Assembly (NCBI GenBank): GCA_963716565.1
Contig: OY970318.1
Coordinates: forward strand, 64,830-128,829
Direction of reading: 5' to 3'
DNA from: an uncultured Candidatus Saccharibacteria bacterium
Lineage (GTDB): Bacteria > Patescibacteriota > Saccharimonadia > Saccharimonadales > CAIOMD01
DNA: 64,000 bases
Below the pieces are notes generated by a model. That model saw only the letters and a program-made list of their open reading frames with translations, had not been told where the DNA came from and made no database searches. Every line of letters begins with the position of its first letter. The stretch's first letter is position 1. Made by a program: the position numbers and the translations under genes. Shown here piece by piece: positions 41,113 to 60,214 of this stretch.

Positions 41113-41154
41113 ACAAACAAAAAAGAGGATGCATTTAGCATCCTCTTTGTTTGT
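41113..41154. terminator. Bidirectional terminator between convergent genes
   Basis: ACAAACAAAAAAGAGGATGC-ATTT-AGCATCCTCTTTGTTTGT. Confidence 0.75.
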
Positions 41155-41164
41155 TGGGTTGGCC

Positions 41165-41365: not shown

Positions 41366-41581
41366 ATTAATCTCCTTATTAATTATCGACCAGCCCGTTT
41401 TCGATGGATACCGCAAGTCTGTTTGTGCTGTGGGCTAAACAGCCAGACCGCTAGGCGGATTTATTTCAAGTTTATTATACATTATCCGATTAGGTCCAGG
41501 CTCAGCAAAAGATGCTTAAGCAGCAAGTTCTAAGAGCAAATTGAAGATATTTGGTGCAAGCTACAATGGGACTTAGTTTAT

Positions 41582-42901: not shown

Positions 42902-43012
42902 TATTGGCCTTTATATTAAATTATTCTTACGCTAATAATAGCAGATATTTAAAAACCTCTTGAGCTTGCAAAGGTCATGACTTAAAAAGCCGAGCGGCTG
43001 CAAAATTACACA

Positions 43013-43035
43013 TGGCTGGGGATGAGGGACTCGAC
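43013..43035 (-). repeat. 23-nt direct repeat copying the 3' end of tRNA-Gln (att-like scar)
   Basis: TGGCTGGGGATGAGGGACTCGA at 43013 matches 43198-43219, the T-arm/acceptor/CCA end of the intact tRNA-Gln. It diverges after that. Confidence 0.7.
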
Positions 43036-43197
43036 TCACCTTCGGCGAGCCCGTCGCAACATCTTTGCAAACAAGTTTGCAAGAGTTGACTCCCTTGCGA
43101 ACTGCCACTGGCATTTCTCACCCCGATTTGGTCGGGTGTTCGAGCCCCAACCATTAAACAAGGCCGGCAAACAGGCATAAAACCTATTTCCCGGCCT

Positions 43198-43271
43198 TGG
43201 CTGGGGATGAGGGACTCGAACCCCCGATCCTGGGACCAGAACCCAGTGCCTTACCACTTGGCCAATCCCCA
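43198..43271 (-). tRNA. tRNA-Gln (anticodon CTG), U1:A72, CCA encoded
   Basis: Reverse complement TGGGGATTGGCCAAGTGGTAAGGC...CTGGG-TTCTGGT-CCCAG...GGTTCGAGTCCCTCATCCCCAGCCA. Confidence 0.9.
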
Positions 43272-43481
43272 ACATTTTGCATCAGGCTTTCGCCCAACAA
43301 CAGATACATTATAGCTTATTGGTTGTAATTAAGAGACAAAAACACCCACAAGAGTGGGTTTTATTTTCTTGGTTGAGCCAGGGGGAGTTGTACTCCCCCT
43401 GGCAGCGACAATACTAAGGGTTGCCTAGCATGTCGCGCGGACAGGATCTACTTGACTCGTTTGAACCATGCCTGCTTTGGT

Positions 43482-43949
43482 TCAGAACGAGGCCACCCCG
43501 TAGGGGGCATTGATGCCCAGCATATGCGCCGGGTTTGTCGCTGCCACCCCTTGGGCCAACTGGCCGATACACCTCTGTGCTGTCTTCGTCGTAGCAGCCA
43601 TGAAGTCGGAGATACCAGCTATGCCAGCCGCAATGCCATATGGTTGCGCCACCGTCCTTTGCCGTATGGTGGTGATGCTGAAGAGATGGCTGTAGCCGGA
43701 GCCGAGCGAACTGTCAGACGCCAGTGTTGTAGCCCGCTGTGCGATGGCCCCGAACGCGACGAATGCCAGAACGAGCAGACCGACGGCGAAGATCACCGCT
43801 GCCGCTTGGCTAGTGCCCGATGCTTGGTCGACGGAGCTGATGCTTAGCGTCAAGACGAACGCGCTCACCGCGAGTGCACACACAATAAGTGCAAGCACCA
43901 TAGCCGCGATGAGGTATCGTCTTAGCCTACTAAGGCCGCGACGTCTCAT
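43482..43949 (-). CDS. Hypothetical membrane protein (155 aa) in a GC-rich island
   Basis: ATG 43949 (MRRRGLSRLRRYLIAAMVLALIV) follows AAGGGGGA. Two TM helices. Two terminator hairpins (GCCAGGGGGAG..CTCCCCCTGGC and AACCCACTCTTGTGGGTGTTTTT) follow before tRNA-Gln. Confidence 0.55.
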   Translation of the reverse strand: MRRRGLSRLRRYLIAAMVLALIVCALAVSAFVLTLSISSVDQASGTSQAAAVIFAVGLLVLAFVAFGAIAQRATTLASDSSLGSGYSHLFSITTIRQRTVAQPYGIAAGIAGISDFMAATTKTAQRCIGQLAQGVAATNPAHMLGINAPYGVASF

Positions 43950-44138
43950 GGTGTATCCCCCTTGGGATCTTGCGTTGCAGAACACCAACAACGAACCTAG
44001 TATCCGTTAGGCGCCTCCTTTTTTCCTGTCCTTACTAAAGAGCCTCCAACAACTCCTACGGTAAGGTCCCAGGGCCGTTAGATAAAAAAATAATACTCCT
44101 AAAAAATGGATTGTAAAAATAAATTGAGAGCAAACTTG

Positions 44139-44390
44139 TTAAAAAGAGGCAATACCGAGCAGTTCGTTAATCGTTAGCCTATCAAAGCCAATCACCACTT
44201 TATCGCCAATCCAGATTTGCGGTACTTGGGTTACGCCGGTTCTGGCAACCATTTTGGGGCCCCACTCTGGTTGTTTTTCTAGGTCGATTTCTTCGAATTC
44301 AATATTTTTGCTCTTTAAGTAATTTTTTGCCTGAACACAGTAGGGGCAGGTGGGTAGCGAAAATACTTTAATGTCTAAGTCTTTTTTCAT
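44139..44390 (-). CDS. Glutaredoxin-like protein (NrdH/Grx family)
   Basis: CPYC active site at residues 15-18 and the thioredoxin-fold pattern (VPQIWIGDKVVIGFD). 83 aa. Confidence 0.85.
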   Translation of the reverse strand: MKKDLDIKVFSLPTCPYCVQAKNYLKSKNIEFEEIDLEKQPEWGPKMVARTGVTQVPQIWIGDKVVIGFDRLTINELLGIASF

Positions 44391-44466
44391 ACTTCTATTC
44401 TATAACAATGTTACGAAATATGCCGGTCTACATCTTATAGAACAGTGTTTTATAATCCACGAACCC

Positions 44467-44495
44467 TTTACAAAATAGCATAAATATAGGATAAT
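44467..44495 (+). promoter_or_regulatory. Promoter TTTACA-17-GATAAT preceding the GC-rich surface-protein island
   Basis: Read directly. Confidence 0.45.
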
Positions 44496-44642
44496 GTGCT
44501 TTAAGCGGAAGAGATTCTGCTTGGATGTTATTTGCTCTTTAACAAGTATCCAGGCCAGTTCAATGCCTTTTTAAATTAGAAGGTGTTGCCCTGGTCTGGA
44601 AAATGGATTCTAGACCTTAAACAGGGGAGGTGCGTCATAGTA

Positions 44643-44786
44643 GTGGCTGTTCAGAGTTGGGTTTGGCAAACGATCGTCATGTCAATGCGGGTCGTCGGTG
44701 CCATCCTAGCTTTAGGGATGGCTGTTGGCGTACTTGCCTATGGTTCCAGTATTTACTTGGAACTGAAGCGAAAGGGGGAGGTCTAA
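44643..44786 (+). CDS. Possible small membrane peptide upstream of the adhesin gene
   Basis: In the frame of track ORF 44583..44786. The start could be GTG 44643, 12 nt after GGGGAGG, or ATG 44679. The product carries a hydrophobic helix VVGAILALGMAVGVLAYG followed by KRKGEV. The start is uncertain. Confidence 0.3.
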   Translation: MAVQSWVWQTIVMSMRVVGAILALGMAVGVLAYGSSIYLELKRKGEV

Positions 44787-44848
44787 GGGAAAGCTGTCGT
44801 ATCAATCTACAACTGTTCTGGCAAACGAGTCACAGGGAGGACGCAGCT

Positions 44849-46705
44849 ATGACTGCGATAGTACGGGAGTACAAGAGGCATCCGCTACGGCTGTTTATGA
44901 TCATTGCGCTTGTTGCGCTTTTGATCACCGGCGTCATCGCCGGTTCGGTCTACGCGGCTACCAACGACGTCGTGGACGATCCGAATGCTACGACGAATTC
45001 GACTGTCAGTTCTGGTGAAGGCGGTTCTATCGAGGGGCAACCCACGGAGACCGAGACCACCGAGACCACAGAGACTACCGAAGCCAGCAACGTGCTGGCC
45101 GGCCAGAGTCTTGGTCTGACCCTGTCTGGTGGTGGAAGAGATGATCCGCCACCGCCACCGCAGGTCACGGGTGTATTAACCGTTACGGTGACATTCGTCA
45201 ATGCACCGACCGGCAAGGACAACCCGACCAGCTACACGGCTAGCGTGAAACAGAATGGCTCTCAGGCCTTCAATGCTAGCGGCAACGCGGTGTTCCCGAG
45301 CTTGGATCTTGGCAAAGACGGTAGCAAGGAGTTCGAGGTCACGGGCGTCTCGCCCGACAACGGCGCGACTGTGAGCTATCCGAACGGCAACAAGAAGACC
45401 CTGACCACCAGCAACCCAAACGGCACCATCGCGGTCACCATGACATGGCCGGCGCCAACAGATGGCGACCATGCCTGGAACAGAGAGAACGGCAAGGGCA
45501 ACAACTGTCCTTATGGTGGGCAGCTCTACTGGGTTCTTACGGCTGGCGGAGGCGGATTTAGCTTCGTGCCAGCTGAAACTACCCTAGAGGTAAAGTTCGC
45601 AGATGGAGCCACCAAAACCTTCAACGGTTTCTTTGAAGGCGGAGGTAGCAACGGAGCCATCAAGTTCATATCGGACTCGATGGACGCCGACGGCACCAAT
45701 CACGGCAAAGTGGTCGATGCTACTGCCCACTGGGGCGGTCTTGGAGAGCCAGGTCATATGGTTCTCACCATCAGCCACTCCATCAAGTGCTACACGGCGC
45801 CGCAACTGTACGACCTGCGAGTCCATAAGGACTTCGCAACCGGTTTTCCGCAGGCTTTGCAGGATCCCACGCGCTATCGCGTACGGGCAGTCTGCGCTGC
45901 GAACAGCTACGATGAATGGCGGACGTTCGACGCCAGCGGCAACGCGGTGTTCGAAGACCTCAAGCCAGGCCAGTACGCCCTGACAGAAGAAAGTCTGGAC
46001 GGGGTGCCGTTCACATACGCATTTACGCCGGCTAGTCCTGTCACCATTGGTTCGGCAGGTCTGACGGTCGCGTGTGTGGAGCCGGGCAACGATGTCGTCA
46101 ACGTGACGGTGGTTAACACCTACGTGCCACGGCTTGGACAGATCACTCTGTGCAAGAATCTGGCTGCAGGCGATTGGCCTGCGGGTGTGACAGCAGCCGA
46201 CTTCACGGCCGTCTACAAGTACGATGGTGTGATTCACAAGGTCCCCTTCGAGCTTGTTGACGAAGCCAACCCACTTCTTGGCCGAGCGATCCTACAGATC
46301 CCCGAGGAATACTTTGGGCTGTACGAATTCATCGGCGAAGAAGGGCCCAACGGAGTCGACTACAACGTGGTCATCAATCCCGGAAGCGTGACGGTGGACG
46401 CGCAGAACCTCACGCATGAGGTGACCTACACCAACACCTATAAGCCTCCGGTGACTACCACGGAACCGCCGGTCACAACGACCGAGCCTCCGGTGACTAC
46501 CACCACAGAGGCCCCGGCCACCACGACAACGCTTGGTCCCACAACGACCACTTTGCCTGGTGGAACCACTACCACGACCATCCACAAGGGAGATCGCGAC
46601 GAGTACCCGTTCACCGGGTTCCAGTTGTTGATCGGTCTTGGTGCGGCCGCGGCACTTGGTGGTGGCGGTGTAGCCCTGCGGCGTCTGACGAGCCGCAAGA
46701 AGTAG
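44849..46705 (+). CDS. Cell-wall-sorted surface protein with SpaA/prealbumin-like domains and a non-canonical YPFTG sorting signal
   Basis: ATG 44849 follows AGGGAGGA. Signal anchor LFMIIALVALLITGVIAGSVYA. SpaA-like unit TFDASGNAVFEDLKPGQYALTEE. A PPVTTTE x3 stalk. The C-terminus has EYPFTG, then the hydrophobic FQLLIGLGAAAALGGGGVAL, then RRLTSRKK. GC-rich. Confidence 0.75.
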   Translation: MTAIVREYKRHPLRLFMIIALVALLITGVIAGSVYAATNDVVDDPNATTNSTVSSGEGGSIEGQPTETETTETTETTEASNVLAGQSLGLTLSGGGRDDPPPPPQVTGVLTVTVTFVNAPTGKDNPTSYTASVKQNGSQAFNASGNAVFPSLDLGKDGSKEFEVTGVSPDNGATVSYPNGNKKTLTTSNPNGTIAVTMTWPAPTDGDHAWNRENGKGNNCPYGGQLYWVLTAGGGGFSFVPAETTLEVKFADGATKTFNGFFEGGGSNGAIKFISDSMDADGTNHGKVVDATAHWGGLGEPGHMVLTISHSIKCYTAPQLYDLRVHKDFATGFPQALQDPTRYRVRAVCAANSYDEWRTFDASGNAVFEDLKPGQYALTEESLDGVPFTYAFTPASPVTIGSAGLTVACVEPGNDVVNVTVVNTYVPRLGQITLCKNLAAGDWPAGVTAADFTAVYKYDGVIHKVPFELVDEANPLLGRAILQIPEEYFGLYEFIGEEGPNGVDYNVVINPGSVTVDAQNLTHEVTYTNTYKPPVTTTEPPVTTTEPPVTTTTEAPATTTTLGPTTTTLPGGTTTTTIHKGDRDEYPFTGFQLLIGLGAAAALGGGGVALRRLTSRKK

Positions 46706-48309: not shown

Positions 48310-50649
48310 ATGCACGAAGATAACCAAAACTTTGAAAAGTATTTTAGAGCCGTTAATTATTTAACGGTGGCTCAGATATTTCTGCAAGATAATTTTTTAC
48401 TAGAAAGACCATTAGAAGCTAAAGATATTAAGCCGCGCCTGCTTGGGCATTGGGGTAGTGGCCCGGGTGTGAATTTGGCGTATATGCACCTCAGTAAGCT
48501 GGCTCAAAAATACGACCAAGAAATGATGTTTGTGCTTGGCCCTGGCCACGCTTTTCCGTCTTTACAGGCTAACTTATTTATGGAGGGTACGCTAGGTAAT
48601 TATTACCCGCAGGCCCAACAAACAGCTGAAGGCATTGCCTACATTTGCCACAATTTTAGCTGGCCTTATGGCTTTCCTAGCCACAGTAACCCCGGCACTC
48701 CAGGTGTCATTTTAGAAGGCGGGGAACTGGGCTATTCGCTATCTACATCTTATGGAGCTGTTTTAGACAATCCCGACTTAATCGTGGCTTGTTTAGTTGG
48801 CGACGGCGAATCCGAAACTGGCGCCGCGGCTGCTGCCTGGCACCTAAATAAGCTTGTAGACCCCAAAACCAATGGCGTAGTCTTGCCCATTCTGCATCTA
48901 AACGGTTACAAAATATCTGCTCCCACCATTTATGGTCGAATGAGCGACGAAGAACTGTTGGCCTTGTTTACGGGCTATGGTTACCAGCCGCGAATCGTAG
49001 ATGGTACCAACCCAGAGCATATCCACAAGCACATGGAAGACGCCCTAGATTGGGCCTACCAAACTATTCACAACATCAAGCACAGCCAGCATCGTGTGTC
49101 GCCCAAATCGCCAATGATCATTATGCGCACCCTAAAGGGCTGGACTGGGCCTAAGGAATTAAACGGCCAGCGCATAGAAGGCAATGCCCTGAGCCATCAG
49201 GTCGTTTTAACAGATGCCAAATCCGATCCTAATCAACTTAAGATGCTAGAACATTGGCTACGCTCTTATAAGTTTCACGAATTATTTCACGCCGAGTCTG
49301 GCTTTGGTGACCTAATAGACGCTATTATGCCGGCCTATCATAAGCGTATGGGCGCCACTCGTCACGCCCTTGGTGGCAGCCCGGTGTACCAACCACTAAA
49401 ATTGCCAGCCCTAGAAACTTACGCCGAAGATGTTTCGCACCCCGGTGTAATTGGTTCCAGCAGCATGCGCCGGTCGGGCTTGTATTTAAGTGATGTTTTT
49501 AAACTAAATACCGAAGAACGTAATTTTAGATTCTTCTCGCCGGACGAAACTTATTCCAACAAACTAGATGACATTTTTAAAGCGACTTCACGCGCTTGGG
49601 TTTGGCCAATAAAAAGCTGGGATAAAGACATGGCGCCAGATGGCCGTGATATGGAAATGCTTAGTGAGCAAAGTTTGCAAGGTATGGCCCAGGGCTATGT
49701 TTTAACTGGCCGGCACGCTGTTTTTGCATCTTATGAAGCCTTTATTATGGTAGTCGCCAGCATGGTAGACCAATATGCTAAGTTTATACATCATTCTCGC
49801 AAAATTGATTGGCACGGGCCAATCGGGTCGTTAACCTACATTCTAACGTCTTCGGCGTGGCGCCAAGATCATAATGGTTTTAGCCATCAAAACCCCGGCT
49901 TTTTAGATGACGTTCTACATCGCGAGGGCGATTTTGTAAACGTGTATTTTCCGCCAGATGGTAATTCTACTTTGGCCGCGCTCGAAAAGAGCTTAAGCGA
50001 ACAAGCCATGATTAATGTTATTGTAGCCGCCAAAACTCAAGAACCGCGCTGGCTCACTCCGCTACAAGCTCGCGAAGGCTTGCGCAGCGGTGTATCGGTT
50101 TGGGATTTTGCTAGCGATGATGACCCAGATGTTGTAATTGCCGCCGCCGGTGATTACTTAACCAAAGAAGCTTTGGCGGCCATTGATATTGCCAAAACCG
50201 AATTGCCCAACCTGCGCCTGCGTTTTGTAAATATTGTTTCGATGTCGCCATCTGGCTTAGGTGCCGCCGAAAACGTGCTAAACCAAGAAGAATTTAATAG
50301 TATTTTTACCGAAAACCGGCCGGTAATTTGTAACTTCCACGGCTACCCCGAAACGCTAAAATCAATTATCTACAACTATGCTTCAGCGCCAAAGCGCTTT
50401 AAAATTCACGGTTACAAAGAGCATGGGTCAACCACTACGCCGTTTGATATGCATGTACGCAACAATACCAGTCGCTACAACTTGGTGATTGATATTATCG
50501 AACAGCTTAGTAGCCTGAATCTTATGCGCCCCGAAGCTGCTAACGACCTAATAACCAAATATCGCAATAAAATAGACGAAAACACCAATTACATTAAGCA
50601 AAACGGTGTTGATTTAGAGGAGATTGATTCATGGCAGTGGAAGCGCTAG
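48310..50649 (+). CDS. xfp: Xylulose-5-phosphate/fructose-6-phosphate phosphoketolase
   Basis: N-terminal YLTVAQIFLQDN...RLLGHWGSGPG, the ThDP motif GDGESETG, and a size of 779 aa. Confidence 0.93.
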   Translation: MHEDNQNFEKYFRAVNYLTVAQIFLQDNFLLERPLEAKDIKPRLLGHWGSGPGVNLAYMHLSKLAQKYDQEMMFVLGPGHAFPSLQANLFMEGTLGNYYPQAQQTAEGIAYICHNFSWPYGFPSHSNPGTPGVILEGGELGYSLSTSYGAVLDNPDLIVACLVGDGESETGAAAAAWHLNKLVDPKTNGVVLPILHLNGYKISAPTIYGRMSDEELLALFTGYGYQPRIVDGTNPEHIHKHMEDALDWAYQTIHNIKHSQHRVSPKSPMIIMRTLKGWTGPKELNGQRIEGNALSHQVVLTDAKSDPNQLKMLEHWLRSYKFHELFHAESGFGDLIDAIMPAYHKRMGATRHALGGSPVYQPLKLPALETYAEDVSHPGVIGSSSMRRSGLYLSDVFKLNTEERNFRFFSPDETYSNKLDDIFKATSRAWVWPIKSWDKDMAPDGRDMEMLSEQSLQGMAQGYVLTGRHAVFASYEAFIMVVASMVDQYAKFIHHSRKIDWHGPIGSLTYILTSSAWRQDHNGFSHQNPGFLDDVLHREGDFVNVYFPPDGNSTLAALEKSLSEQAMINVIVAAKTQEPRWLTPLQAREGLRSGVSVWDFASDDDPDVVIAAAGDYLTKEALAAIDIAKTELPNLRLRFVNIVSMSPSGLGAAENVLNQEEFNSIFTENRPVICNFHGYPETLKSIIYNYASAPKRFKIHGYKEHGSTTTPFDMHVRNNTSRYNLVIDIIEQLSSLNLMRPEAANDLITKYRNKIDENTNYIKQNGVDLEEIDSWQWKR

Positions 50650-51830
50650 TTTTAGCGGCTAACCCTGGCAGCGCTAGCCGTAAATATTCTTTGTATAGTG
50701 GCGATGAATTGTTGGCGTCTTTGTATTTCGAATACGAAAACGGCCAAATTATTTGTACTGCTAAAAGTACTGCCGGCAGCCAAAGGCTAGAACTTGGTAT
50801 TGCCGATTTAGAGCAAACTCCCCAGTATATTGTAGAGGCTCTGCAGCAGGCTGGTGTAGAAGTAAAAAATGGTTTTGAATGCATTGGCCTTAGAGTGGTC
50901 GCGCCAACCAGCCTGTTTTTGTTGGATTGCCTGTTGGACGATGCAGCTATTACCGAGCTAACCGAGCTAGAGCATTTGGTACCTTTACACATTCGGGCCT
51001 CACTAGAAGAAGCCCGTGGGCTAAAAGCTAATTTTGCCAACACACCAGTAGTAGCGGTGTCCGATTCGGCTTTTCATATTACCAAGCCCGATTATGCCTG
51101 GAACTACGCTATACCACTAGAAGATGCTGACCGTTTGCAAATCAAACGTTTTGGTTACCATGGCATTTCTTTAGCTTCGATTGTTCGTGAATTGAAAGAT
51201 TTAGATGAACTACCCCAAAAGTTGATTGTTTGCCACCTAGGCAGCGGTAATAGTGTATCGGCAGTTTTGAATGGACTAAGCTTAGATACTACCATGGGTT
51301 TTTCGCCGTTAGAGGGTCTAATGATGGCTACTCGTAGCGGTTCAATGGATGTGATGGCGGCCTTAACTTTGCAAAAAGAACTTGGTTTGTCGCCGTCCGA
51401 CCTAGAAACATATTTAAATAAGAAGAGTGGCTTGATGGGCGTAAGCGGAAGCTCCTCGGATATTCGGGAACTCTTAGTCGCTGAAGCAGACAATGATTAT
51501 AGGGCTGGATTAGCTCTAAGAATGTACGTTTATCGCATTCGGCAAGCTATTGGCCAAATGGCCGCTAGTTTGGAAGGGGTTGATGCGTTAGTTTTTACGG
51601 CCGCTGTTGGTAGCCGTTCGTTTATAATCCGCCAACGGGTTGTGGAAGGCTTAGCTCACCTTGGGTTTAGTATTGATGAGCTTAAAAATAGCAACGTGGT
51701 AGAACCCAGCAGCGTACAGAATATAAGTACGTCACCGCAGCACAAACCAATTTACGTTATCACCACCAACGAAGCCAAAGAAATCGCCACCCGCGCCCTT
51801 GGCGTAGTAAAAAATACCATCGCCCAGTAG
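50631..51830 (+). CDS. ackA: Acetate kinase
   Basis: LVLAANPGSASRKYSLY, RFGYHGISL and CHLGSGNSVSAV. It overlaps the xfp 3' end by 19 nt, which implies coupled expression. Confidence 0.9.
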   Translation: MAVEALVLAANPGSASRKYSLYSGDELLASLYFEYENGQIICTAKSTAGSQRLELGIADLEQTPQYIVEALQQAGVEVKNGFECIGLRVVAPTSLFLLDCLLDDAAITELTELEHLVPLHIRASLEEARGLKANFANTPVVAVSDSAFHITKPDYAWNYAIPLEDADRLQIKRFGYHGISLASIVRELKDLDELPQKLIVCHLGSGNSVSAVLNGLSLDTTMGFSPLEGLMMATRSGSMDVMAALTLQKELGLSPSDLETYLNKKSGLMGVSGSSSDIRELLVAEADNDYRAGLALRMYVYRIRQAIGQMAASLEGVDALVFTAAVGSRSFIIRQRVVEGLAHLGFSIDELKNSNVVEPSSVQNISTSPQHKPIYVITTNEAKEIATRALGVVKNTIAQ

Positions 51831-51962: not shown

Positions 51963-54900
51963 ATGCGTGGATTCAAAAAAGTATTATCAAAGATAGGGCT
52001 CAACATAACTGCGGTGGCATTAGTGCTATCGATTACACCATCATTGATGTTCAGCGGTGATGCTTCGGCCGTAAGCACGGCGGTCATTTATGGCGCTATT
52101 CCAGATTCGTTGCCATCTAATATGGTTAGCTTGGGCTTCCAGGCAACCCAGACCTCTGCGTTCGGTGATTATGTACATCTTGCCGGTACAGACCGTAACC
52201 TTGATGCTGTTACTGTCACAATGAGCAACTGGGCCTTATATGCAGATTATGCAACGGATGCCAGATATTTGGGCGATAGTGCTAACTGGTATCACCCAAT
52301 AACTATTAACATTTTTGACAATCATCTTGGCGCAAATGGTGTGCCCGATACGCTCCTAGCTACGGTTACTCAAATAGCCACGATTCCATGGCGCCCAGCC
52401 GAAGACCCTACTCACTGTCCTACAAAAAGTGACTCGGGCTATGCATATAAGTGGCAGTCAACTCCTGGCGCGCCTGACACGAACTGCTATAACGGCTTTG
52501 CCGTTAATATTACATTTGATATGAGCAGTTTAAATATTACTCTGCCTGATGATGTTATCGTAGGTATTGCGTACAATACGCAAAGCTATGGCTTGGCGCC
52601 AATAGGCGTAGGCGGGCCATACAACTCGCTGAACGTCGGATTAGAAGGATTAACCACGGTTGGCACTGACAATAACTCTGATAATGTTTTCTGGAATACG
52701 TCAACAGCCGATTGGTACACTGACGATGGCGCTGGTGGAGTAGGCACCTTCCGCGAGGACACCGGCTGGGCACCGTATGTCATACCTATCCAAATAACCG
52801 CTAATATAACAGACACAACAGCACCAGAGGTGCCAGTCCATTTGTCTCCCTCGGATAATAGTTATAAAACTACAGCCAACCAGACGATAATTGATTGGAC
52901 GACCGTAACGGATCCATCAGCACCTGTTACTTATAGATACCAATCTTCTAACTTGCCTAACACTAACCCAGACGGTTCGTTTGTTAGCCCAGCTTATACT
53001 TCGGGCTTGCTAACTGCCTCGCAAATTCCAACATCGGGTACTCCGCAAGGCGTTTACTACTGGCACGTCAAGGCCGTAGATGCTGTTGGCAACGAAAGTA
53101 ACTGGAGTGATGCCTGGAAGGTAACCGTAGACAATGCTGCTCCAACTACGCCTACTGTTAGTTTTATAAACCCAACTTTGCCGTGTGATGCTATTACTAA
53201 CATCCACAATGTCACCGTTGACTGGACGGATTCTACAGATAATCATGGCTTAGCCGGATACGAGTATTTAGTTGATTATCCTTTAGCTAACGGATCGGGC
53301 CGAGGACAGTGGGCGACCACTTTCACGGCTTCTCAGTATACTGGCTCTTTGAACGAAGGCTATCACGACGTTAAAGTCAGGGCCAAGGACTTGGCAGGTA
53401 ATTATTCTGCTTGGTCTAACATCTGTCGTATCACGGCCGACTGGACCGCGCCAGATGTTGAAATCACCGCTCCATCTAACGGATCAGTTAGTGGTACCGT
53501 TGAGGTAAGAGGTACGGTTCTTGATAGCAATCTATGGCGTTACTATACAGTCGTTTTAAATAGTTCTAACCAACAAGTCGCCGGCCCTGGCACAGTTAAC
53601 TTTAACGATGCGTTTACAAATAAAAGCCTATTTAGCTTTAATACCACCTTACTAGCAGACGGCATTTATACTATTCGCTTAGAAGCTAGAGACAAGGCTA
53701 ACAATAAAGATGCGGGCTCTACTGATGTAAATACCATAACTGTAGATAATACCGCGCCTACTGCCGACCTAGTTTTTGCTAATATTGGCCCTGGCGCAAT
53801 TTCCTTTGATGTCGTATTTAGCGAACCGGTTGACCCTACCGAAGCAACAAATCCAGCAAATTATTTTTTGAATAATTGGCCAGGAGCTGGTGGTACTGGT
53901 GATTTAATTGGCGATGCAAATATCTCATACAACGGCGCCACAAACACAGCAACAGTGACCTTTCTCAATGCTGGATGGTACGTTTCGCCTGAGCAAAATT
54001 GGGGAGTGCAAGACGTCCACGACTTAGCGGGCAATTTGCTCGTTCCAAGCCCTACTAGTGAAACATCTACGCCAATGGTTGCGCCAACTACTACTGCGAT
54101 TCTGGACGGTACAGTTGGGTTAAACAGTACATACGTTTCTGATGTTACCGTAGACTTTAGCGCTACCGACCCGGCGGTTGGTTCGGGTGTAATAGCAACT
54201 TACTATAATCTTGATGGGAGCGGCTACTTGCAGGGTAATCCGGTTTTGGTGACGACTGATGGAGCTCATAATATTTGCTACTACTCTACCGACAATGCTG
54301 GCAATACCGAAGCAGAAAAATGCGATGTAACATTTAGCATCGACCAAACTGCACCGGTTATAACCATCAACCCTTACGGTATTGACCCGACTAATCAAGA
54401 TGTAGTCGTTACTGCTTCTACCAACGAAGGCACACTGAATTTTGATAGCTACACTTTCACGGATAACGGCTCATTTGAATTTGTGTCCACCGATGCAGCT
54501 GGCAACGTCACAACCGAAACTGTGATTATCACTAACATCGACAAGATTGCACCCGTAATTACCGTGGGTCCTTACAGCACTTCTCCAACCAACCAGGACA
54601 TTGTGGTCGTGGTTTCCACAAATGAGGGTAGCTTAAACTTTGACGCGTATACTTTTACCACCAACGGCAGTTTCGATTTTGTGTCCACCGATGCAGCTGG
54701 CAACGTCACAACCGAAACGGTTATTATTGATAACATCGATAAAGCGGCGCCAGTTATAACTTTAACTGGTGGCAATGTCACCCTAACGGTGGGTGATACT
54801 TATACCGAACTTGGTGCCACATCTACCGAAGGCACTGTTGTAATAACCGGCTCAGTAAATACTGCGGTTGCGGGCACGTATCTTGTTAATTACGATGCCA

Positions 54901-55226
54901 CCGACGAAGCCGGCAACAATGCCGCAACAGTTACGCGGACAGTGCAGGTAAACAATCCTACTTTTGTGCCTACAGCAGGAGCGGCTTTTGTTACAGGTGC
55001 CTTAATTACCCCAGCCCCAACTGCTCCTATCGCAGAAACAACTCCCACACCTTCTGTTACCGAAACCGACTCCAGCCAGACTGGTAGTGAAACTACCGAG
55101 GTACAAGGTTCTACCGCCAATGGCGACCACTGGTATGCTCTATGGTGGGTCTGGGTATTGGCTGCGCTTGGTGTTGGCGGTGGCTTATGGTTCTTAATTC
55201 GACGACGCGTTAGTGAAGATAGCTAA
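51963..55226 (+). CDS. Giant surface protein (1087 aa): signal peptide, multiple Ig/FN3-like domains, C-terminal TM anchor
   Basis: Signal ITAVALVLSITPSLMFSGDASA. Recurrent D(N/Q)(T/A)AP(x) domain boundaries. Ig-like DUF5011-type unit VTLTVGDTYTELGATS...YLVNYDATDEAGN. The C-terminus is WWVWVLAALGVGGGLWFLIRRR. No LPxTG motif. Confidence 0.7.
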   Translation: MRGFKKVLSKIGLNITAVALVLSITPSLMFSGDASAVSTAVIYGAIPDSLPSNMVSLGFQATQTSAFGDYVHLAGTDRNLDAVTVTMSNWALYADYATDARYLGDSANWYHPITINIFDNHLGANGVPDTLLATVTQIATIPWRPAEDPTHCPTKSDSGYAYKWQSTPGAPDTNCYNGFAVNITFDMSSLNITLPDDVIVGIAYNTQSYGLAPIGVGGPYNSLNVGLEGLTTVGTDNNSDNVFWNTSTADWYTDDGAGGVGTFREDTGWAPYVIPIQITANITDTTAPEVPVHLSPSDNSYKTTANQTIIDWTTVTDPSAPVTYRYQSSNLPNTNPDGSFVSPAYTSGLLTASQIPTSGTPQGVYYWHVKAVDAVGNESNWSDAWKVTVDNAAPTTPTVSFINPTLPCDAITNIHNVTVDWTDSTDNHGLAGYEYLVDYPLANGSGRGQWATTFTASQYTGSLNEGYHDVKVRAKDLAGNYSAWSNICRITADWTAPDVEITAPSNGSVSGTVEVRGTVLDSNLWRYYTVVLNSSNQQVAGPGTVNFNDAFTNKSLFSFNTTLLADGIYTIRLEARDKANNKDAGSTDVNTITVDNTAPTADLVFANIGPGAISFDVVFSEPVDPTEATNPANYFLNNWPGAGGTGDLIGDANISYNGATNTATVTFLNAGWYVSPEQNWGVQDVHDLAGNLLVPSPTSETSTPMVAPTTTAILDGTVGLNSTYVSDVTVDFSATDPAVGSGVIATYYNLDGSGYLQGNPVLVTTDGAHNICYYSTDNAGNTEAEKCDVTFSIDQTAPVITINPYGIDPTNQDVVVTASTNEGTLNFDSYTFTDNGSFEFVSTDAAGNVTTETVIITNIDKIAPVITVGPYSTSPTNQDIVVVVSTNEGSLNFDAYTFTTNGSFDFVSTDAAGNVTTETVIIDNIDKAAPVITLTGGNVTLTVGDTYTELGATSTEGTVVITGSVNTAVAGTYLVNYDATDEAGNNAATVTRTVQVNNPTFVPTAGAAFVTGALITPAPTAPIAETTPTPSVTETDSSQTGSETTEVQGSTANGDHWYALWWVWVLAALGVGGGLWFLIRRRVSEDS
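54351..54746 (+). repeat. Tandem 198-bp (66-aa) coding repeat x2 inside the giant surface protein
   Basis: APVITINPYGIDPTNQD...NVTTETVIITNIDK is repeated as APVITVGPYSTSPTNQD...NVTTETVIIDNIDK. An identical 38-nt core (gtgtccaccgatgcagctggcaacgtcacaaccgaaac) occurs at 54483 and 54681. Confidence 0.9.
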
Positions 55227-55272: not shown

Positions 55273-56658
55273 CTAGGCCTGAGCCATTTGGCCGGCACGT
55301 TTGGGTGATATCCAAGTAGACAAACCAACGCTCCGTTTTATCACCTTGCGAAAATGAAAAAGCGATTTTATAGCTGCGCTGATTTGCACAACATCCATAG
55401 CATAGAATAGTATGTAAATAACTAGTGCCGAAAAGCTTAATCTTAGCTTCTCTCTTTTAGAAAGGTGTTCATCTGGCCATAACACACTGAGTGTATATAG
55501 CGAGATTGTTATGTAAGCCCCAATAAAAATGCCAATTGTTTGGTAATGGAAGCTTAAGTAAATTATGTAAGCCAACAGTAATGGTTCAAGCAGCAATAAA
55601 ACTTCGCTTATCAGTGCCACTGGCAAACGGTACAATGTTAAAGCTCGGCTATAAAGATTAGGCTGATATTTAGCAATAAGATGTCGGAACTTGAATAAGT
55701 TCTGCAAGTTGCCCATCTTCCAACGGTATCTCTGTCTTATAAGGTCTTCAAAGGTTTGTACGCCTTCGGTGTAAGCTACTACGTCGGCACCGTAAATTAC
55801 CCTGTGCTGGCGATTACCAATACTTGAAATTATTTTTAAGCTTAGGCCAATGTCTTCGGTCATTGTATCGTCATCATAAAACTTAACCTTTCGTAATACG
55901 GTTCTACGATAAGTGGAGGCCACTCCGCCTACAATAAATTCGCTGTTTGTTAAGCTATAGAACTTTTTAGATCTATAGCCAATCATGTGCTCGAATCTTT
56001 GTATCTTGCCCAGCATAGAAGAACTTTCCATAATTCTTACGTTGGCTGCTACGCCAATTATGTGATTATCTTTAAAATAGGCGACAGCTCTTTCTATAGA
56101 AGAGGGGTGGAGCATAGAATCGGCATCTAGGCACATAACATAGCGTCCTTTAACATAATTTTTAATAGCATTGTTCATAGCGCTAGCCTTGCCGCCATTG
56201 CGCTGATTGACTAATTTTAGGCGTATATCCCTAGTCCTTACTTGAATGTAGCGGCGTTTCTTAGGCTTAAGTAGGGCCCCCTTATCATCGAAATAGCTTC
56301 TAACCGAATGATACCGCTTTATTTTTTTACTTCTTATGTAGTCTTTTACTTTTTTGGCGGTGCTATCGGTAGACCCATCGTTAACAACAATAATTTCAAA
56401 ATTTGGGTATGTGTTTACCAAAATAGAATTAAGCGTACGGCAAATAACGCTTGCTTCGTTATGGGCAGGAACAACTACGCTTACCAAGTCAAAGCGCGGT
56501 TTTTTATTTGTTGGTCTGCTTGGGCGACGTTTTAAGCTGTCACGGCTCTTTTTATATGTCAATATGTCATAGATATTTGCCCCCACAATGTAGAAGCCAA
56601 GATGGACCACGGCTATTAAGTTGGCTATTGCCAGCAGGTACATTAAGAAGGTAAGCAT
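55273..56658 (-). CDS. Processive family-2 glycosyltransferase (PgaC/IcaA/cellulose-synthase-like)
   Basis: VVPAHNE, NDGSTD, LDADS and QRYRWKMG (QxxRW), flanked by N- and C-terminal TM helices. Confidence 0.85.
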   Translation of the reverse strand: MLTFLMYLLAIANLIAVVHLGFYIVGANIYDILTYKKSRDSLKRRPSRPTNKKPRFDLVSVVVPAHNEASVICRTLNSILVNTYPNFEIIVVNDGSTDSTAKKVKDYIRSKKIKRYHSVRSYFDDKGALLKPKKRRYIQVRTRDIRLKLVNQRNGGKASAMNNAIKNYVKGRYVMCLDADSMLHPSSIERAVAYFKDNHIIGVAANVRIMESSSMLGKIQRFEHMIGYRSKKFYSLTNSEFIVGGVASTYRRTVLRKVKFYDDDTMTEDIGLSLKIISSIGNRQHRVIYGADVVAYTEGVQTFEDLIRQRYRWKMGNLQNLFKFRHLIAKYQPNLYSRALTLYRLPVALISEVLLLLEPLLLAYIIYLSFHYQTIGIFIGAYITISLYTLSVLWPDEHLSKREKLRLSFSALVIYILFYAMDVVQISAAIKSLFHFRKVIKRSVGLSTWISPKRAGQMAQA

Positions 56659-57245
56659 TAAATGGCCCTTACAAAATCAAAGGTAAATAGCTGGCGATTT
56701 TGGTAGAACAATCCTTCGCATGTCTGTAGGGTTAAAATTGGCTTACCAGTATAGCCAAAAATACTATTGTCGTACTGGTTGGTTACTCTTTGGTAAGAGA
56801 ACTTATAATAAAAAGCATGGCCGTTAGAGGTTCTAATGATTGCTTCGGCACCATCCTCTATGTTGTGGAGCGTGGCGAACACCTCGTATCTATAGTGGCC
56901 GTATATAAAGGTGTTGCCCTCGATGTTGTTAGGTAGCGGAGTGATGGTAGCATATTGAACTTTGTCTGTAGTAAGGTTCCAAGTTTTGCTATCTTGGTAG
57001 TAATAGCCAGGGATAACTTCTAAATCGTAACCTAAACTAGGTATCAGAAGCCTTATAGGATCACCGCTTATTTCGTTTGTGATGTTGCCCGTATCAACAT
57101 TAGCAACATCTGAATAAGCAAACACTGGCTTTGTGCTGTTTGCAACGCTCATATAGCCAGAAAAGATAAGGGTAATAAGCACACCAAAGCCAAAAGATGT
57201 GAAAACAGTACCACCGTAAATGAATACACTTTTGAATTTATTCAT
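56658..57245 (-). CDS. Sortase (transpeptidase)
   Basis: N-terminal TM, catalytic His context FIYGH, TLxTC motif ILTLQTCEG, and a downstream Arg (NRQLF). Confidence 0.85.
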   Translation of the reverse strand: MNKFKSVFIYGGTVFTSFGFGVLITLIFSGYMSVANSTKPVFAYSDVANVDTGNITNEISGDPIRLLIPSLGYDLEVIPGYYYQDSKTWNLTTDKVQYATITPLPNNIEGNTFIYGHYRYEVFATLHNIEDGAEAIIRTSNGHAFYYKFSYQRVTNQYDNSIFGYTGKPILTLQTCEGLFYQNRQLFTFDFVRAI

Positions 57246-57334
57246 ACTAATTAGGCCCTAAAAACAAAGAGCAGCTCTGTTAACGCGTTATACGTGCTAA
57301 CAGAGCCCCTCTATTGGTTATTGAGTATATTTAT

Positions 57335-57517
57335 TTAAGCTCTAAAATAGTTCTTTTTAGCCATCCAGCGTGCCAAAATTGACAGCAAGATAACTGCTCC
57401 GACCGTAATGCTAGTAAGCGCTACGATTTGAAGCACCTTGTTTCCACCGGTGTTTGGTAAGACGATTGCGCCGCCGCCAAGGCCGACTATACCGCCACCA
57501 CCTTTGCCTCCGTACAT
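57335..57517 (-). CDS. 60-aa Gly-rich mini-protein consisting almost only of an LPNTG sorting signal
   Basis: The sequence is MYGGKGGGGIVGLGGGAIV-LPNTG-GNKVLQIVALTSITVGAVILLSIL-ARWMAKKNYFRA. The RBS is AGGGGAG, 8 nt upstream. Its own terminator hairpin sits before the sortase gene. Confidence 0.6.
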   Translation of the reverse strand: MYGGKGGGGIVGLGGGAIVLPNTGGNKVLQIVALTSITVGAVILLSILARWMAKKNYFRA

Positions 57518-57746
57518 AAGATATTCTCCCCTGGTTTGTTCACAAAAAGTGAAAAACCAATTAGTATCACCTCTTGAGTGAGTGCTACTAGATAGACTCG
57601 CTCAAATCAAGCATATTGTACTCTATAAGTGCGCACTAGTCAACAACATTTTATAATGCTATTGCTATAACAGAACATTTACAAACAGTCATTAATATAG
57701 TAAGAAACTTATGCTTTTAACGACGTACGGTCAACTCTTGATTTTA

Positions 57747-58718
57747 TTAGCGTCTAGAGATGCGATTTATTTTTTTGGTGACTGTCCGAGCCTTAGCGAA
57801 AAAGGTGTCTGCTCGAGATTTTGCGTTAGTTCTCACTGGTACGGTTTTTAGTTTTAATGTACCAACAATAGGCTGGAACTTATTCAACCAGCGATCTAGC
57901 GGTTTGCGAACAGTTTGGAGCTTGCTTAACCAGCGCTTCAATAGTTCGCGACGACGGGTGATCATGTAAACGCTGCCGCATAGGGCTACAACGACTAAAC
58001 CAATACCAATGAATGGGCCTGCGCCCGAATCGCTTGTGAAGCCCCAAAAATGCCATCTTTTGTTATGCCTATCATTTGTAGACTTTTTGGTTGGAGTTGG
58101 TGTTGGTGCGTTGGTTGGCTCGGGGGTTGGCGTAGTCGTAGGTGTTACCGTAGGAACTGTTGTGACATTGCGCCGACGTGAGTTATTAGAATTGTTGGGT
58201 GTTGGAGTGGGGGCGGTAGGTGCCGGCGTAGGCGTAGGCGTGGATGGGATAACAATCGTAAATGTTGCACCCGTGATTGCGCCATTCCATACGTCTGTAT
58301 TATCAGTAGAGCGGTAGATATGTGAACTACTAGCGAAATTAATTGCTCCGCTGCCATTTCCGATAACCTTAAAGTTAGCAGTTGCTACCGCTTGGTTACC
58401 ACTTTTTGGTGTGATTGTTCCACAGGTGATACCAGCGCCACTGCCGGGAGCGCTTATTTCGAACGCCGAGCTGTTACAGCTAATGCCCGTAAGTTGTAAT
58501 ACGGCCTGGTTAAAGCTTATATCGGCCTCAATAACGTTTACTGTATCTATAGCGCTGTTCTCGTACATAGTCACGGCAAAGATAGATCCAACAGTATAGT
58601 TGCCATTATTAGGTGACATGGATAGACTAGCCGATCCAGATGCGTAAGCCGTGGCCGGCAATAATAAGCTGACTAATATGCCCGCAAGATAACAAATCTT
58701 TAAAAGTTGTTTTTTCAT
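57747..58718 (-). CDS. Cohesin-domain protein with Pro/Thr linker, TM anchor and basic cytoplasmic tail
   Basis: Signal peptide. Cohesin-like beta-sandwich pattern (SLSMSPNNGNYTVGSIFAVTMYENSAIDTVNVIEADISFNQAVLQLTGI...ATANFKVIGNGSGAINF). PTPTP linker, then TM GPFIGIGLVVVALCGSVYMI and an R/K-rich tail. Confidence 0.65.
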   Translation of the reverse strand: MKKQLLKICYLAGILVSLLLPATAYASGSASLSMSPNNGNYTVGSIFAVTMYENSAIDTVNVIEADISFNQAVLQLTGISCNSSAFEISAPGSGAGITCGTITPKSGNQAVATANFKVIGNGSGAINFASSSHIYRSTDNTDVWNGAITGATFTIVIPSTPTPTPAPTAPTPTPNNSNNSRRRNVTTVPTVTPTTTPTPEPTNAPTPTPTKKSTNDRHNKRWHFWGFTSDSGAGPFIGIGLVVVALCGSVYMITRRRELLKRWLSKLQTVRKPLDRWLNKFQPIVGTLKLKTVPVRTNAKSRADTFFAKARTVTKKINRISRR

Positions 58719-58720
58719 GA

Positions 58721-60214
58721 TTATTTACCCCAGTTAGTTAATAGAATTGATAAATCAAGTGCGCCTACCGCTAGGTCACCATTAACATCACCCTGGGCTA
58801 ACGTGGCGCCCGATTTACCCCAGTTAGTTAACATAATGCTCAGATCTAGCGCGTTAATGAGTCCGTCACTGTTTGCATCACCCGTTTTGTTGGTAGTTAC
58901 CGATATTGCAACTGGTGACAAAAACTTCATAGTGTCAAGGTATGCACTGATGCCAGAATTAGCGCTAACAATTAATTGCAAGCGGGCGCTGGTAACGGCT
59001 GTAGATGTAGGTGCGTATTCAAAATTGAGGTTCTCTAAATAAACACTTGGTTCTTGTACTTTGAACTGGCCTGACAGCCAAGTGCCTTCGGAGTTGTATT
59101 CATCTATATAGAATCCGATGGCACCGCTGTTTATGGCGGTTACATTCAAATAGCATTTAATTACATATGTTTGGGTTGGGTCTATCTTAACGATTGTGGA
59201 AAATAAATGAGAATTTACATTGGCCGATTCCATCTTTACAGAATTCGTGGGGCTCGGGCCGCTACCATTATTTTGGGTATCTTGCTTGATTGTAGCGGGG
59301 CTGTCTGTATTCCAAGTCGCGGTGCTAATAGCTGAGTCGACTAATGGGGAATCAAACGTTTCGTTCCCGAATAGGTCTGCATCACTATTGATTAAGCCTT
59401 CAGAAATGTTTACTACTGGCAAATTTTTTTCTTTAACATAACTGGCAATGGCATCTAAATCTGCAGTACTGTACTGGTAATCGTCTGGGTCAGTGCTTGG
59501 AGTTACCCGTATATCATGCATGGTGAGAATAAGCCATTGGTTATTAGCAATCGCGTAGTCTATGTAACCCTTTACCGTAGCTACGCTTACACCGACTTGT
59601 ACGGGTTGATCGCGTAGTAGGTAATCACTGTACGGGTATGGGTTGTAGCCTGTATCGGCAAAACCACGGTGTGAGGTGTATACTTTAGCGATTTCGGCTA
59701 GAACCGGCTGGTTCCAGTCGCCGTACGGCGAAGAAAAGGCCGTGGTGGTAATTCCATTGCTGGTAAGCACGCTTTTTGAGGTAGTAAGTTCGTTGACTAC
59801 TTCTGCTGTCGTGAGCTTATTCGGCTGGTCGTCGGGGTCGCTACTCGCGAGATATGGATGAGTGGCACTATGCGAGCCGATTTCCCAGCCGTAGGTATCT
59901 ACAAGCGTATGTATCTGAGACCAGTCCATATAAGGTACGTCTTCGTCTGCCTTGCAGTTGTTAGGGGTAGTTGTCATGCCTACGCAACTTGATACAACAT
60001 AATTGGTGGCCGCAAAGCCATACTTGGCCAATGTTGGGGCAGCTTGGGTAAAGGCACTTTGCAGGCCATCATCAAAAGTAAAAGATATTTTTGCTACACG
60101 CTGCAAGTTTTGATTTAATGCCAATGCCTGCAATCCAAATGCAAACAGCATTGATATGCTAATGGAAACAGCCATTAGCCGTACGATTATTTTATTGCCA
60201 ATAAGTCTATTCAT
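58721..60214 (-). CDS. Secreted polysaccharide deacetylase (NodB/CE4) with a CBM-like domain and a C-terminal dockerin
   Basis: NodB motifs FTFDDG and GSHSATHP. A jelly-roll CBM4_9-like middle region. Two dockerin Ca-loops, GDANSDGLINALDLSIMLTNWGK and GDVNGDLAVGALDLSILLTNWGK. Confidence 0.8.
   Translation of the reverse strand: MNRLIGNKIIVRLMAVSISISMLFAFGLQALALNQNLQRVAKISFTFDDGLQSAFTQAAPTLAKYGFAATNYVVSSCVGMTTTPNNCKADEDVPYMDWSQIHTLVDTYGWEIGSHSATHPYLASSDPDDQPNKLTTAEVVNELTTSKSVLTSNGITTTAFSSPYGDWNQPVLAEIAKVYTSHRGFADTGYNPYPYSDYLLRDQPVQVGVSVATVKGYIDYAIANNQWLILTMHDIRVTPSTDPDDYQYSTADLDAIASYVKEKNLPVVNISEGLINSDADLFGNETFDSPLVDSAISTATWNTDSPATIKQDTQNNGSGPSPTNSVKMESANVNSHLFSTIVKIDPTQTYVIKCYLNVTAINSGAIGFYIDEYNSEGTWLSGQFKVQEPSVYLENLNFEYAPTSTAVTSARLQLIVSANSGISAYLDTMKFLSPVAISVTTNKTGDANSDGLINALDLSIMLTNWGKSGATLAQGDVNGDLAVGALDLSILLTNWGK

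Follow-up and report, generated by a model that had tools for sequence, protein, structure and literature searches.

Why would a member of the Saccharibacteria encode, side by side on one strand, a dockerin-tagged polysaccharide deacetylase, a cohesin-bearing membrane protein, a 60-aa protein made up largely of a sorting signal, a sortase and a family 2 glycosyltransferase (GT2)? The question is raised by positions 55273-60214 of the sequence under study, a 64-kb stretch from an uncultured Candidatus Saccharibacteria bacterium (hereafter the window), where these five minus-strand open reading frames (ORFs) are found. The answer to which the evidence leans, by a modest measure, is that they form a Saccharimonadales surface-glycan module of two linked units, in which the deacetylase would be held on a cohesin tether beside the synthase. 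This proposed reading is supported by comparative genomics and by structure prediction. No published description of this five-gene module was found in the literature.

All five ORFs are present as the initial annotation had described them, and the deacetylase, dockerin, LPNTG and GT2 motifs that it quoted are found in the translations. In reading order, the first gene (58721-60214, minus) encodes a secreted 497-aa protein with a carbohydrate esterase family 4 (CE4) domain, a carbohydrate-binding module (CBM) and a dockerin, matched by PF01522 (63.1 bits) and PF00404 (31.0 bits). The second (57747-58718, minus) encodes the 323-aa cohesin anchor and follows closely, as claimed, but with 2 nt (TC) rather than 3 nt between the deacetylase stop and its ATG. 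A gap of 229 nt, which contains a promoter-like TTGACT-17-TACAAT (57615-57643, minus; a consensus match only), precedes the gene of the LPNTG mini-protein (57335-57517, minus; 60 aa), whose ATG has the ribosome-binding site GGGGAG ahead of it. The membrane-anchored sortase (56658-57245, minus; 195 aa) and the GT2 synthase (55273-56658, minus; 461 aa) complete the set; the synthase start does overlap the sortase stop, by one shared base (TAATG), and the GT2 gene is predicted to be translationally coupled to the sortase gene. The identities proposed for the deacetylase, dockerin, sortase and GT2 all exceed curated Pfam thresholds in hidden Markov model (HMM) searches.

The tether depends first on the nature of the anchor, which consists of a signal peptide, a beta-sandwich (residues 27-160; 58239-58640, minus), a 70-residue Pro/Thr-rich (PT) linker, a transmembrane helix at about residues 234-253 and a basic tail in which 22 of about 70 residues are Lys/Arg. 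The proposal that the sandwich is a cohesin did not stand for the window protein taken singly, which has no PF00963 match and, used alone against PDB sequences, finds no meaningful match, but it did stand for the family and for the predicted structure. Among 26 relatives, many carry precomputed PF00963 matches; 18 of the 23 members of an alignment of the N-terminal domain match PF00963 individually (best E 3.8e-12), and the profile of this alignment retrieves 17 PDB matches, 16 of them cohesins, the best being Clostridium acetobutylicum CohA2 (6kg8, 3.5e-5). The AlphaFold2 (AF2) model of the module (predicted local distance difference test, pLDDT, 90.8; predicted template-modelling score, pTM, 0.84) adopts the nine-stranded jelly-roll sandwich of cohesins, and its top 15 Foldseek matches in the PDB are all cohesins (E down to 2.5e-8, template-modelling score (TM-score) 0.65-0.75), from cellulosomal and non-cellulosomal proteins alike (including 2jh2, 2vo8 and 2xdh). 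Because homologue profile and predicted fold both match cohesins, the identity is accepted for the window protein and can be called confirmed at the level of family profile and structural model; the anchor is a type I membrane-anchored single-cohesin scaffoldin. An LPATA string in the same protein was considered as a sorting signal and rejected, since it falls inside the signal peptide. The cytoplasmic tails of the window anchor (57750-57962, minus) and of six paired anchors in other loci (L046, L048, L053, L062, L068 and L074) are Lys/Arg-rich, 15-75 residues long, and contain no recognisable domain. A genome scan with a 5-sequence alignment of the cohesin found nine relatives, all nine in metagenome-assembled genomes of Saccharibacteria/Saccharimonadia or in other Patescibacteria, in agreement with the earlier impression of an episymbiont-like organism; almost all named sources of the sortase or CE4 homologues are likewise Saccharimonadales or Saccharibacteria.

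The presumed cargo is equally composite. Its CE4 domain (residues 31-285; 59360-60124, minus) carries FTFDDG (45-50), HSATH (115-119) and LTMHD (230-234), and D48, D49, H115, H119 and H233 are invariant across the CE4 family alignments, so that the Asp-His-His metal triad and the catalytic Asp and His are present along with the PF01522 match. The motif-3 Arg lies outside the usual RPPY context, the window sequence being SSPYGDW. In Foldseek comparisons the fold resembles CE4 esterases and peptidoglycan deacetylases (target-normalised TM-score 0.6-0.68). The middle module (residues 286-435; 58910-59359, minus) is a CBM_4_9 relative: PF02018 is matched by 11 of 17 family members, and the predicted fold resembles CBM16 (2zey, target-normalised TM-score 0.76) as well as CBM4-2 and CBM22. 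The dockerin (residues 436-497; 58724-58909, minus) comprises two F-hand repeats, DANSDGLINALD and DVNGDLAVGALD, with loops at residues 446-457 and 476-487; Dockerin_1 matches residues 445-491 with 31.0 bits (cut-off 22.9), and the dockerin family profile yields 25 PDB matches, virtually without exception dockerins or enzymes that carry one (best 2y3n_B, 2.5e-7).

This architecture is uncommon within its family. More than 900 homologues of the deacetylase were found, and those with a named source come from Saccharibacteria/Saccharimonadales, except one compost-metagenome record; only 1 of the top 120 CE4 homologues bears PF00404, the commoner forms having two or three CBMs. The idea that CE4-CBM-dockerin and CE4-CBM-CBM are strict alternatives was rejected, both being present in L053, L096 and L098; because they occur together there, they are read as paralogues, of which the dockerin form is the minority one.

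Whether dockerin and cohesin belong together was addressed through their distribution in other loci. For this purpose and the following ones, sortase homologues were aligned and 80 metagenomic loci were annotated with iterated HMMs built from the window proteins, then collapsed at 95% sortase identity into 71 groups with pairwise sortase identity down to 35%. In the dereplicated loci, a dockerin-bearing CE4 and a downstream cohesin gene occur both together in eight cases, the dockerin alone in none, the cohesin alone in none, and neither in 29, which still carry CE4. Further pairs exist in L001-3, L095, L096 and L098. The CE4 gene always comes first and the cohesin gene second, -38 to +4 nt apart, and every complete paired anchor has a signal peptide, a cohesin, a 47-95-residue P/T/S/A-rich linker, a transmembrane helix and a basic tail. 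The claim of a cognate partner encoded next door is thereby upheld as far as the genes are concerned, the two co-occurring without exception. Besides, dockerin divergence follows that of the neighbouring cohesin (rho 0.43) more than that of its own CE4 domain (rho 0.18; nine pairs), with a partial Mantel p of 0.013 (n=9), although this signal is weak, given the small n and the contribution of one near-duplicate pair.

One may nevertheless suppose that the two neighbouring modules do not pair with each other, the anchor docking other proteins such as adhesins with FN3 or immunoglobulin-like (Ig-like) domains, and the CE4 dockerin binding another cohesin or none. The relatives' anchors do adjoin FN3/Ig dockerin proteins, the multi-cohesin adaptors described below indicate a system of many components, and the window shows only 64 kb of a 799-kb genome. 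The second dockerin loop points the same way: while the first loop, DANSDGLINALD, is canonical for D-x-N/D-x-D-G-x-x-N/D-x-x-D, the second, DVNGDLAVGALD (58754-58789, minus), carries Leu and Gly at positions 6 and 9, respectively, at odds with the canonical D-x-N-x-D-G-x-V-N/D retained by all eight aligned relatives. This deviant F-hand could mean a single-site binding mode or weakened binding. Set against these points are the strict co-occurrence (8/0/0/29) with additional pairs elsewhere, the -38 to +4 nt spacing, the correlated divergence, and the content of the 64-kb window, in which the deacetylase is the only dockerin protein and no second cohesin or dockerin is found. A mismatch of the two modules appears very unlikely, and the window cohesin would probably bind the window dockerin, as judged indirectly from strict co-occurrence and adjacency.

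The pair seems to be one case of a broader habit. Of 14 loci retrieved through the cohesin, 12 have an ORF with a dockerin at a distance of about 200 nt or less from the cohesin ORF; in 11 of those 12 the two ORFs share a strand and are separated by at most 14 nt. Ten of the cohesin-adjacent dockerin proteins exceed the Pfam dockerin threshold; the recognisable domains of the ten are FN3/Ig-like, and four show a dockerin alone. In L008 the neighbour is an adaptor that combines three Pfam cohesins with FN3 and a dockerin. Proteins resembling adaptor scaffoldins, in which the two module types occur together, are encoded at L008 4885-7887, L004 5190-6689 and L006 9130-10701, implying multi-tier cohesin-dockerin assemblies on those cells. 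Since the arrangement of cohesin next to dockerin recurs in relatives, the CE4 pair may be regarded as one instance of a general Saccharibacteria surface display, with CE4 as the sole enzymatic cargo seen among the cohesin-adjacent dockerin proteins. A non-cellulosomal use had been suggested at the outset, and it agrees with these data: none of 25 neighbouring GH10 ORFs in the related loci carries a dockerin or the CBM, other dockerin cargo is FN3/Ig-like, and the dockerin-bearing glycoside hydrolases on a scaffoldin that define a cellulosome are not found in the related loci. Our literature search found no description of cohesin anchors in Saccharibacteria. The nearest report concerns Southlakia, in which a dockerin-domain protein is reported as essential, its partner not being described (PMC10633639).

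The second question is whether the pair has anything to do with the three genes that follow it. At first, the contexts of L001-L005 suggested that the GT2/sortase linkage was not conserved, a view overturned by the 80 sortase-centred loci. Among the dereplicated ones, the mini-protein immediately precedes the sortase in 56 of 58, GT2 lies directly downstream on the same strand in 53 of 62 and adjoins the sortase on either strand in 60 of 62, and a CE4 gene is present in 25 of the 27 loci with at least 3 kb of upstream sequence. From these gene orders, LPNTG mini-protein, sortase and GT2 appear to be the most conserved core. CE4 is usually divergent from the other three, its median distance to the sortase gene being 547 nt, and keeps close when it is co-directional or has moved downstream of them. 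The complete set of five is found in eight dereplicated metagenomic loci and in L096, which bears out the expectation that the five genes would be co-conserved. Recurring as it does in dozens of divergent loci, the arrangement is far beyond chance.

Because sampling centred on the sortase could bias these counts, the surroundings of four CE4 homologues from long contigs (L096-L099) were examined in addition. L096 carries, within 18 kb, mini-protein, sortase, GT2, a CE4 with three CBMs, CE4-CBM-dockerin and then a cohesin anchor. L097 and L099 contain a run of a small transmembrane protein, the orthologous GT2 (44-47% identity), a second-type CE4 and the orthologous CE4 (55% identity); GT2 overlaps the first CE4 gene by 8 nt, the first CE4 protein has its CE4 domain C-terminal and the CE4-CBM orthologue comes after it, and a sortase is absent from the run. 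These co-directional, sortase-less clusters lie at L097 4645-9764 and L099 4679-9809, each headed by a transmembrane protein of 76-78 aa without LPXTG. In L098 both CE4 forms stand together, with no GT2 within 8 kb. The association between GT2 and CE4 postulated in the initial annotation is borne out by the 25 of 27 loci with CE4 near GT2 and by the co-directional runs of L097 and L099; judged by gene order, the linkage appears to be real, operon-like in places and not universal. L001-3, whose cohesin is 42% identical, keep the dockerin-CE4/cohesin pair, followed by murI and a Mur ligase, and no sortase or GT2 is seen in those contigs.

Within the conserved core, the mini-protein is the most unusual element. 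Its family follows one pattern: MY, about 20 small residues (G/A/T/S/V), (V/L)LPNTG, a transmembrane helix and a basic tail such as AKKAYKA. The window member has about 17 small residues after MY, LPNTG at 20-24, a helix at 26-48 and the tail RWMAKKNYFRA, thus showing the motif, hydrophobic helix and positive C-terminus of an LPXTG sorting signal. Members were identified in 66 of 95 sources (window and loci), with LPNTG in 56 of 68 ORFs and LPxT[G/S/N] in nine more. A HMMER scan of 1.84 billion representatives gave 33 clusters, all of 56-96 aa, and for this reason the mini-proteins are considered a family of tiny proteins rather than fragments of large surface proteins. The adjacent sortase has a transmembrane anchor at residues 9-27 and matches PF04203 at 59.7 bits, its H117, C176 (within TLQTC) and R184 being invariant in 18 aligned sequences; no NCBIfam class model reaches its cut-off, the best being class D (37.7 and 35.4 bits against 140 and 165). 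Motif and Pfam evidence thus agree with the mini-protein and sortase identities first proposed. As the N-terminal tail is short and nearly uncharged and the C-terminal tail positive, an N-out orientation is predicted, which would place LPNTG within reach of the membrane-anchored sortase. The mini-protein is also the only credible LPxTG ORF in the 64-kb window, and it would be the dedicated substrate of this sortase subfamily.

Alternatively, the 60-aa protein could be no sortase substrate but a small modulator in the membrane, protecting the sortase in the manner of SafA or assisting the synthase in that of IcaD/PgaD, and its LPNTG would have some other function. Sortase-linked small transmembrane proteins are indeed known, SafA having 52 aa (PMC9282373), the sortase-less L097 and L099 have their 76-78-aa protein without LPXTG upstream of GT2, and the mini-protein, devoid of a signal peptide, offers almost no cargo. 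This possibility is nonetheless held to be improbable: LPNTG, helix and basic tail constitute a canonical sorting signal that is kept, in strict or relaxed form, by nearly the entire family (56 of 68 ORFs plus nine), the FPW motif is absent from the family, the gene lies upstream and not downstream of the sortase gene, and the charges of the two tails would put LPNTG on the outer face of the membrane. Although SafA of Actinobacteria is likewise a protein of about 50-60 aa with one transmembrane helix, encoded by a gene adjoining that of the sortase, it is encoded downstream of srtA and acts through FPW (PMC9282373), whereas the mini-protein is encoded upstream, has no FPW and carries the canonical LPNTG signal.

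The last gene of the core encodes a predicted processive family 2 glycan synthase, as indicated by its motifs (PAHNE; NDGSTD, 93-98; LDAD, 177-180; TED, 267-269; QRYRW, 309-313), conserved in 46 orthologues, and by its multi-transmembrane region (transmembrane-like segments 2-20, 345-363, 375-393 and 412-430). It matches several Pfam GT2 families including Chitin_synth_2. The best NCBIfam model is PgaC_IcaA (TIGR03937), matched over positions 95-406 of 407, with the glycosyltransferase models associated with XrtG and XrtP as secondary matches; the top model for the deacetylase is HfsH (44.3 against a cut-off of 400). The product is probably an acetylated glycan of N-acetylglucosamine (GlcNAc) type or another beta-linked glycan. 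A peptidoglycan wall is likely to be present as well, since the window encodes a Mur ligase and Ddl.

What the deacetylase acts upon is the point on which the strongest competing explanation turns. It holds that CE4 acts outward, as an acetylxylan esterase or as a chitin or peptidoglycan deacetylase on a minimal cellulosome- or xylanosome-like display that would process glycans of plants, fungi or the host cell wall, and that its nearness to GT2 reflects synteny or shared regulation. Several features of the locus and its relatives lend themselves to this explanation: the CBM_4_9 module of the enzyme, the resemblance of its fold to acetylxylan esterases (7ax7, 2cc0) and to the peptidoglycan deacetylase PdaC, the position of the CE4-dockerin/cohesin pairs beside murI and a Mur ligase in L001-3, the fact that housekeeping genes are syntenic too, and the genuine GH10 genes (258-271 bits) that adjoin the CE4 genes of relatives. 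The latter stand beside the CE4/GT2 cluster in 19 loci (L096 4037-7784, L097 1673-3400, L098 6131-7915, L099 1715-3472 and 15 further loci), each with an N-terminal region of about 270 aa without an assigned domain; they may be hydrolases that trim the polymer, or xylanases. On the other side, both dockerin and CBM are missing from all 25 GH10 ORFs, no GH10 exists within the 64-kb window, the order of GT2 and CE4 in L097 and L099 resembles an operon, CE4 adjacency survives inversions and relocation, and the best NCBIfam matches of the deacetylase, all below cut-off, are the glycan-biosynthetic HfsH, PgaB and IcaB. In addition, synthase-dependent exopolysaccharide loci (bcs, pel, psl, pga) commonly include a hydrolase. 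A degradative xylanosome was ranked second for three of these reasons, namely GH10 enzymes devoid of dockerin and CBM, the operon-like order in L097 and L099 and the usual hydrolase of exopolysaccharide loci, and we regard it as rather unlikely, though less so than the other alternatives.

The reading of the five genes as one biosynthetic, tethered module has to be weighed against a number of observations that speak against it. As to the polymer, the GT2 protein scores 160.7 bits on TIGR03937, far from the 422.3 of its cut-off, and the deacetylase does not reach the equivalogs for poly-N-acetylglucosamine (PNAG) enzymes either (TIGR03938, 27.0 against 321.9; TIGR03933, 26.5 against 248.35). 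CBM_4_9 modules and the GH10 neighbours of relatives are typical of beta-1,4-glycan degradation, and because they are hallmarks of beta-1,4 glycans they weaken a simple PNAG reading; the acetylxylan esterases among the structural matches of CE4 add to this. As to the linkage, CE4-dockerin/cohesin pairs exist without the sortase cluster in the available flanks (L001, L095 and L098), and an EPSP-synthase/MurA-like gene and a serine hydroxymethyltransferase gene also recur near the cluster, so that part of its linkage may be general synteny. As to the tether, the window anchor has no Pfam cohesin match at E<=0.1, the second dockerin loop is degenerate, and the dockerin fold is poorly defined in the full-length AF2 model of the deacetylase (pLDDT about 30). 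Finally, the mini-protein has no N-terminal hydrophobic segment or signal peptide and only 19 residues ahead of LPNTG; its export would have to proceed by insertion of the N-terminal tail.

With these reservations, the tethered glycan module could be envisaged as follows. In its first unit, composed of mini-protein, sortase and GT2, a PgaC/IcaA-like synthase would polymerise and export a glycan, and the dedicated sortase would act on the apparent substrate encoded immediately upstream, consisting of about 19 small residues and the LPNTG sorting signal; cleavage at LPNT|G would be followed by transfer of the peptide to the wall or to the glycan. The second unit would consist of the CE4-CBM-dockerin enzyme with its cohesin anchor; here the secreted deacetylase would grip the glycan through its CBM and remove acetyl groups outside the cell, the product of GT2 thus being its substrate. 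Its dockerin would dock, presumably in a Ca2+-dependent manner, onto the single cohesin of the anchor encoded 2 nt downstream, and, by way of the 70-residue PT linker, the enzyme would be kept near the synthase at the surface of the wall. A more daring version, which we judge improbable, is that mini-protein, sortase, GT2 and CE4 make up a new sortase-dependent pathway for anchoring or conjugating a glycan: the sortase would join the 23-residue LPNT peptide to the polymer itself (for instance to amines exposed by CE4) or use it to fix the polymer to peptidoglycan, with the tether positioning the deacetylase for this purpose.

Comparison with known systems brings out what is familiar and what is not. 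Like IcaADBC of staphylococci and PgaABCD of Escherichia coli, the cluster associates a processive GT2 with an extracellular CE4 kept near the cell surface; the GT2 shares the D, DxD, TED and QxxRW motifs, and PgaC_IcaA is its best-scoring model. However, both GT2 and CE4 remain far below the equivalog cut-offs, no IcaC, IcaD, PgaA or PgaD is recognised, the deacetylase bears a CBM_4_9 and a dockerin, and the cluster includes a sortase and an LPNTG mini-protein. A sorting transpeptidase, a substrate with a C-terminal signal and a GT2 are also encoded together in exosortase/PEP-CTERM systems, which Haft et al. reportedly linked to exopolysaccharide loci, whereas the window enzyme is a true sortase (PF04203) predicted to recognise LPNTG. 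The exopolysaccharide genes SEML1_0080-0083 of Southlakia were considered as a counterpart of the cluster and rejected, being a Wzx/Wzy-type locus.

The cohesin-dockerin pair resembles cellulosomal type I pairs such as CaCohA2-CaDoc0917 of C. acetobutylicum (6kgc), which are among the best structural matches and likewise combine an enzyme-borne C-terminal dockerin with a cell-bound cohesin. It departs from them in that the cargo is a CE4 beside a biosynthetic GT2, no dockerin-bearing glycoside hydrolases are seen and the scaffoldin has no CBM3; moreover, the anchor is a type I transmembrane protein with a single cohesin, unlike the anchoring scaffoldins of cellulosomes, which are held by S-layer homology (SLH) domains or by sortases. 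Non-cellulosomal cohesins and dockerins have been surveyed (Peer et al. 2009, as cited in PMC10066038). In common with NagJ/NagH of Clostridium perfringens and the Archaeoglobus fulgidus cohesin 2xdh, the pair appears to lie outside plant-cell-wall degradation, but where those systems join secreted hydrolases or toxins together, the Patescibacteria have a membrane anchor and its cargo encoded as adjacent genes and, in relatives, adaptor scaffoldins. For the mini-protein, sortase and GT2, a possible functional analogy, and an analogy only, is offered by GspA-LcpA-SrtA of Actinomyces oris, in which a sortase substrate carries a glycopolymer to the cell wall (PMC6381275); the carrier there, GspA, is an LPXTG protein of full size that an LCP-family enzyme glycosylates, whereas the window substrate would be a 60-aa peptide with a GT2 synthase as its neighbour.

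The remainder of the window includes several features of separate interest. Convergent with the GT2 gene, positions 51963-55226 (plus) encode a surface protein of 1087 aa that combines Big_3_3, Big_13 and OmpL47-type domains with a transmembrane helix and an RRR tail at the C-terminus; it has no LPXTG, and its gene is not conserved beside the cluster in other loci. Leucyl-tRNA synthetase is spread over two plus-strand ORFs, 29431-30591 and 30579-32318, which overlap by 13 nt. The second opens with a NUDIX domain (residues 4-119), after which come the remaining part of the catalytic core and the anticodon-binding domain; another NUDIX ORF (28696-29409, plus) stands just upstream. This arrangement may be a true split/fusion or a frameshift. 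Four ORFs of 400, 221, 439 and 691 aa at 39108-46705 have no Pfam match at 1e-5 and occupy the highest-GC stretch of the window (0.48-0.51, compared with about 0.43 elsewhere). A phosphoketolase (XFP) gene stands beside an acetate kinase gene (48310-51830, plus), which points to a phosphoketolase route to acetate and ATP. Ten tRNA genes (110-2955, 12356-12654, 18597-19352 and 43201-43271) were found, five of them clustered in 2429-2955.

Saccharibacteria live attached to other bacteria, and how they build their surface and hold their host is largely unknown. The cluster provides a concrete, widely conserved surface-glycan module found across dozens of divergent Saccharimonadales loci, and genetic tools exist for cultivated Saccharibacteria (PMC10633639). 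The Saccharibacteria cohesin-dockerin pairs may, beyond this, serve as new orthogonal parts for protein assembly. Two features stand out: a cohesin-dockerin pair that apparently positions a modifying enzyme, a rare use outside polysaccharide degradation, and a sortase coupled with both a glycan synthase and a substrate consisting almost wholly of sorting signal. The module may also have a role in attachment to the host. Should the more daring version outlined above hold true, it would represent the first use of cohesin and dockerin in biosynthesis rather than in degradation, and no earlier sortase would have served a polysaccharide pathway as its dedicated enzyme.

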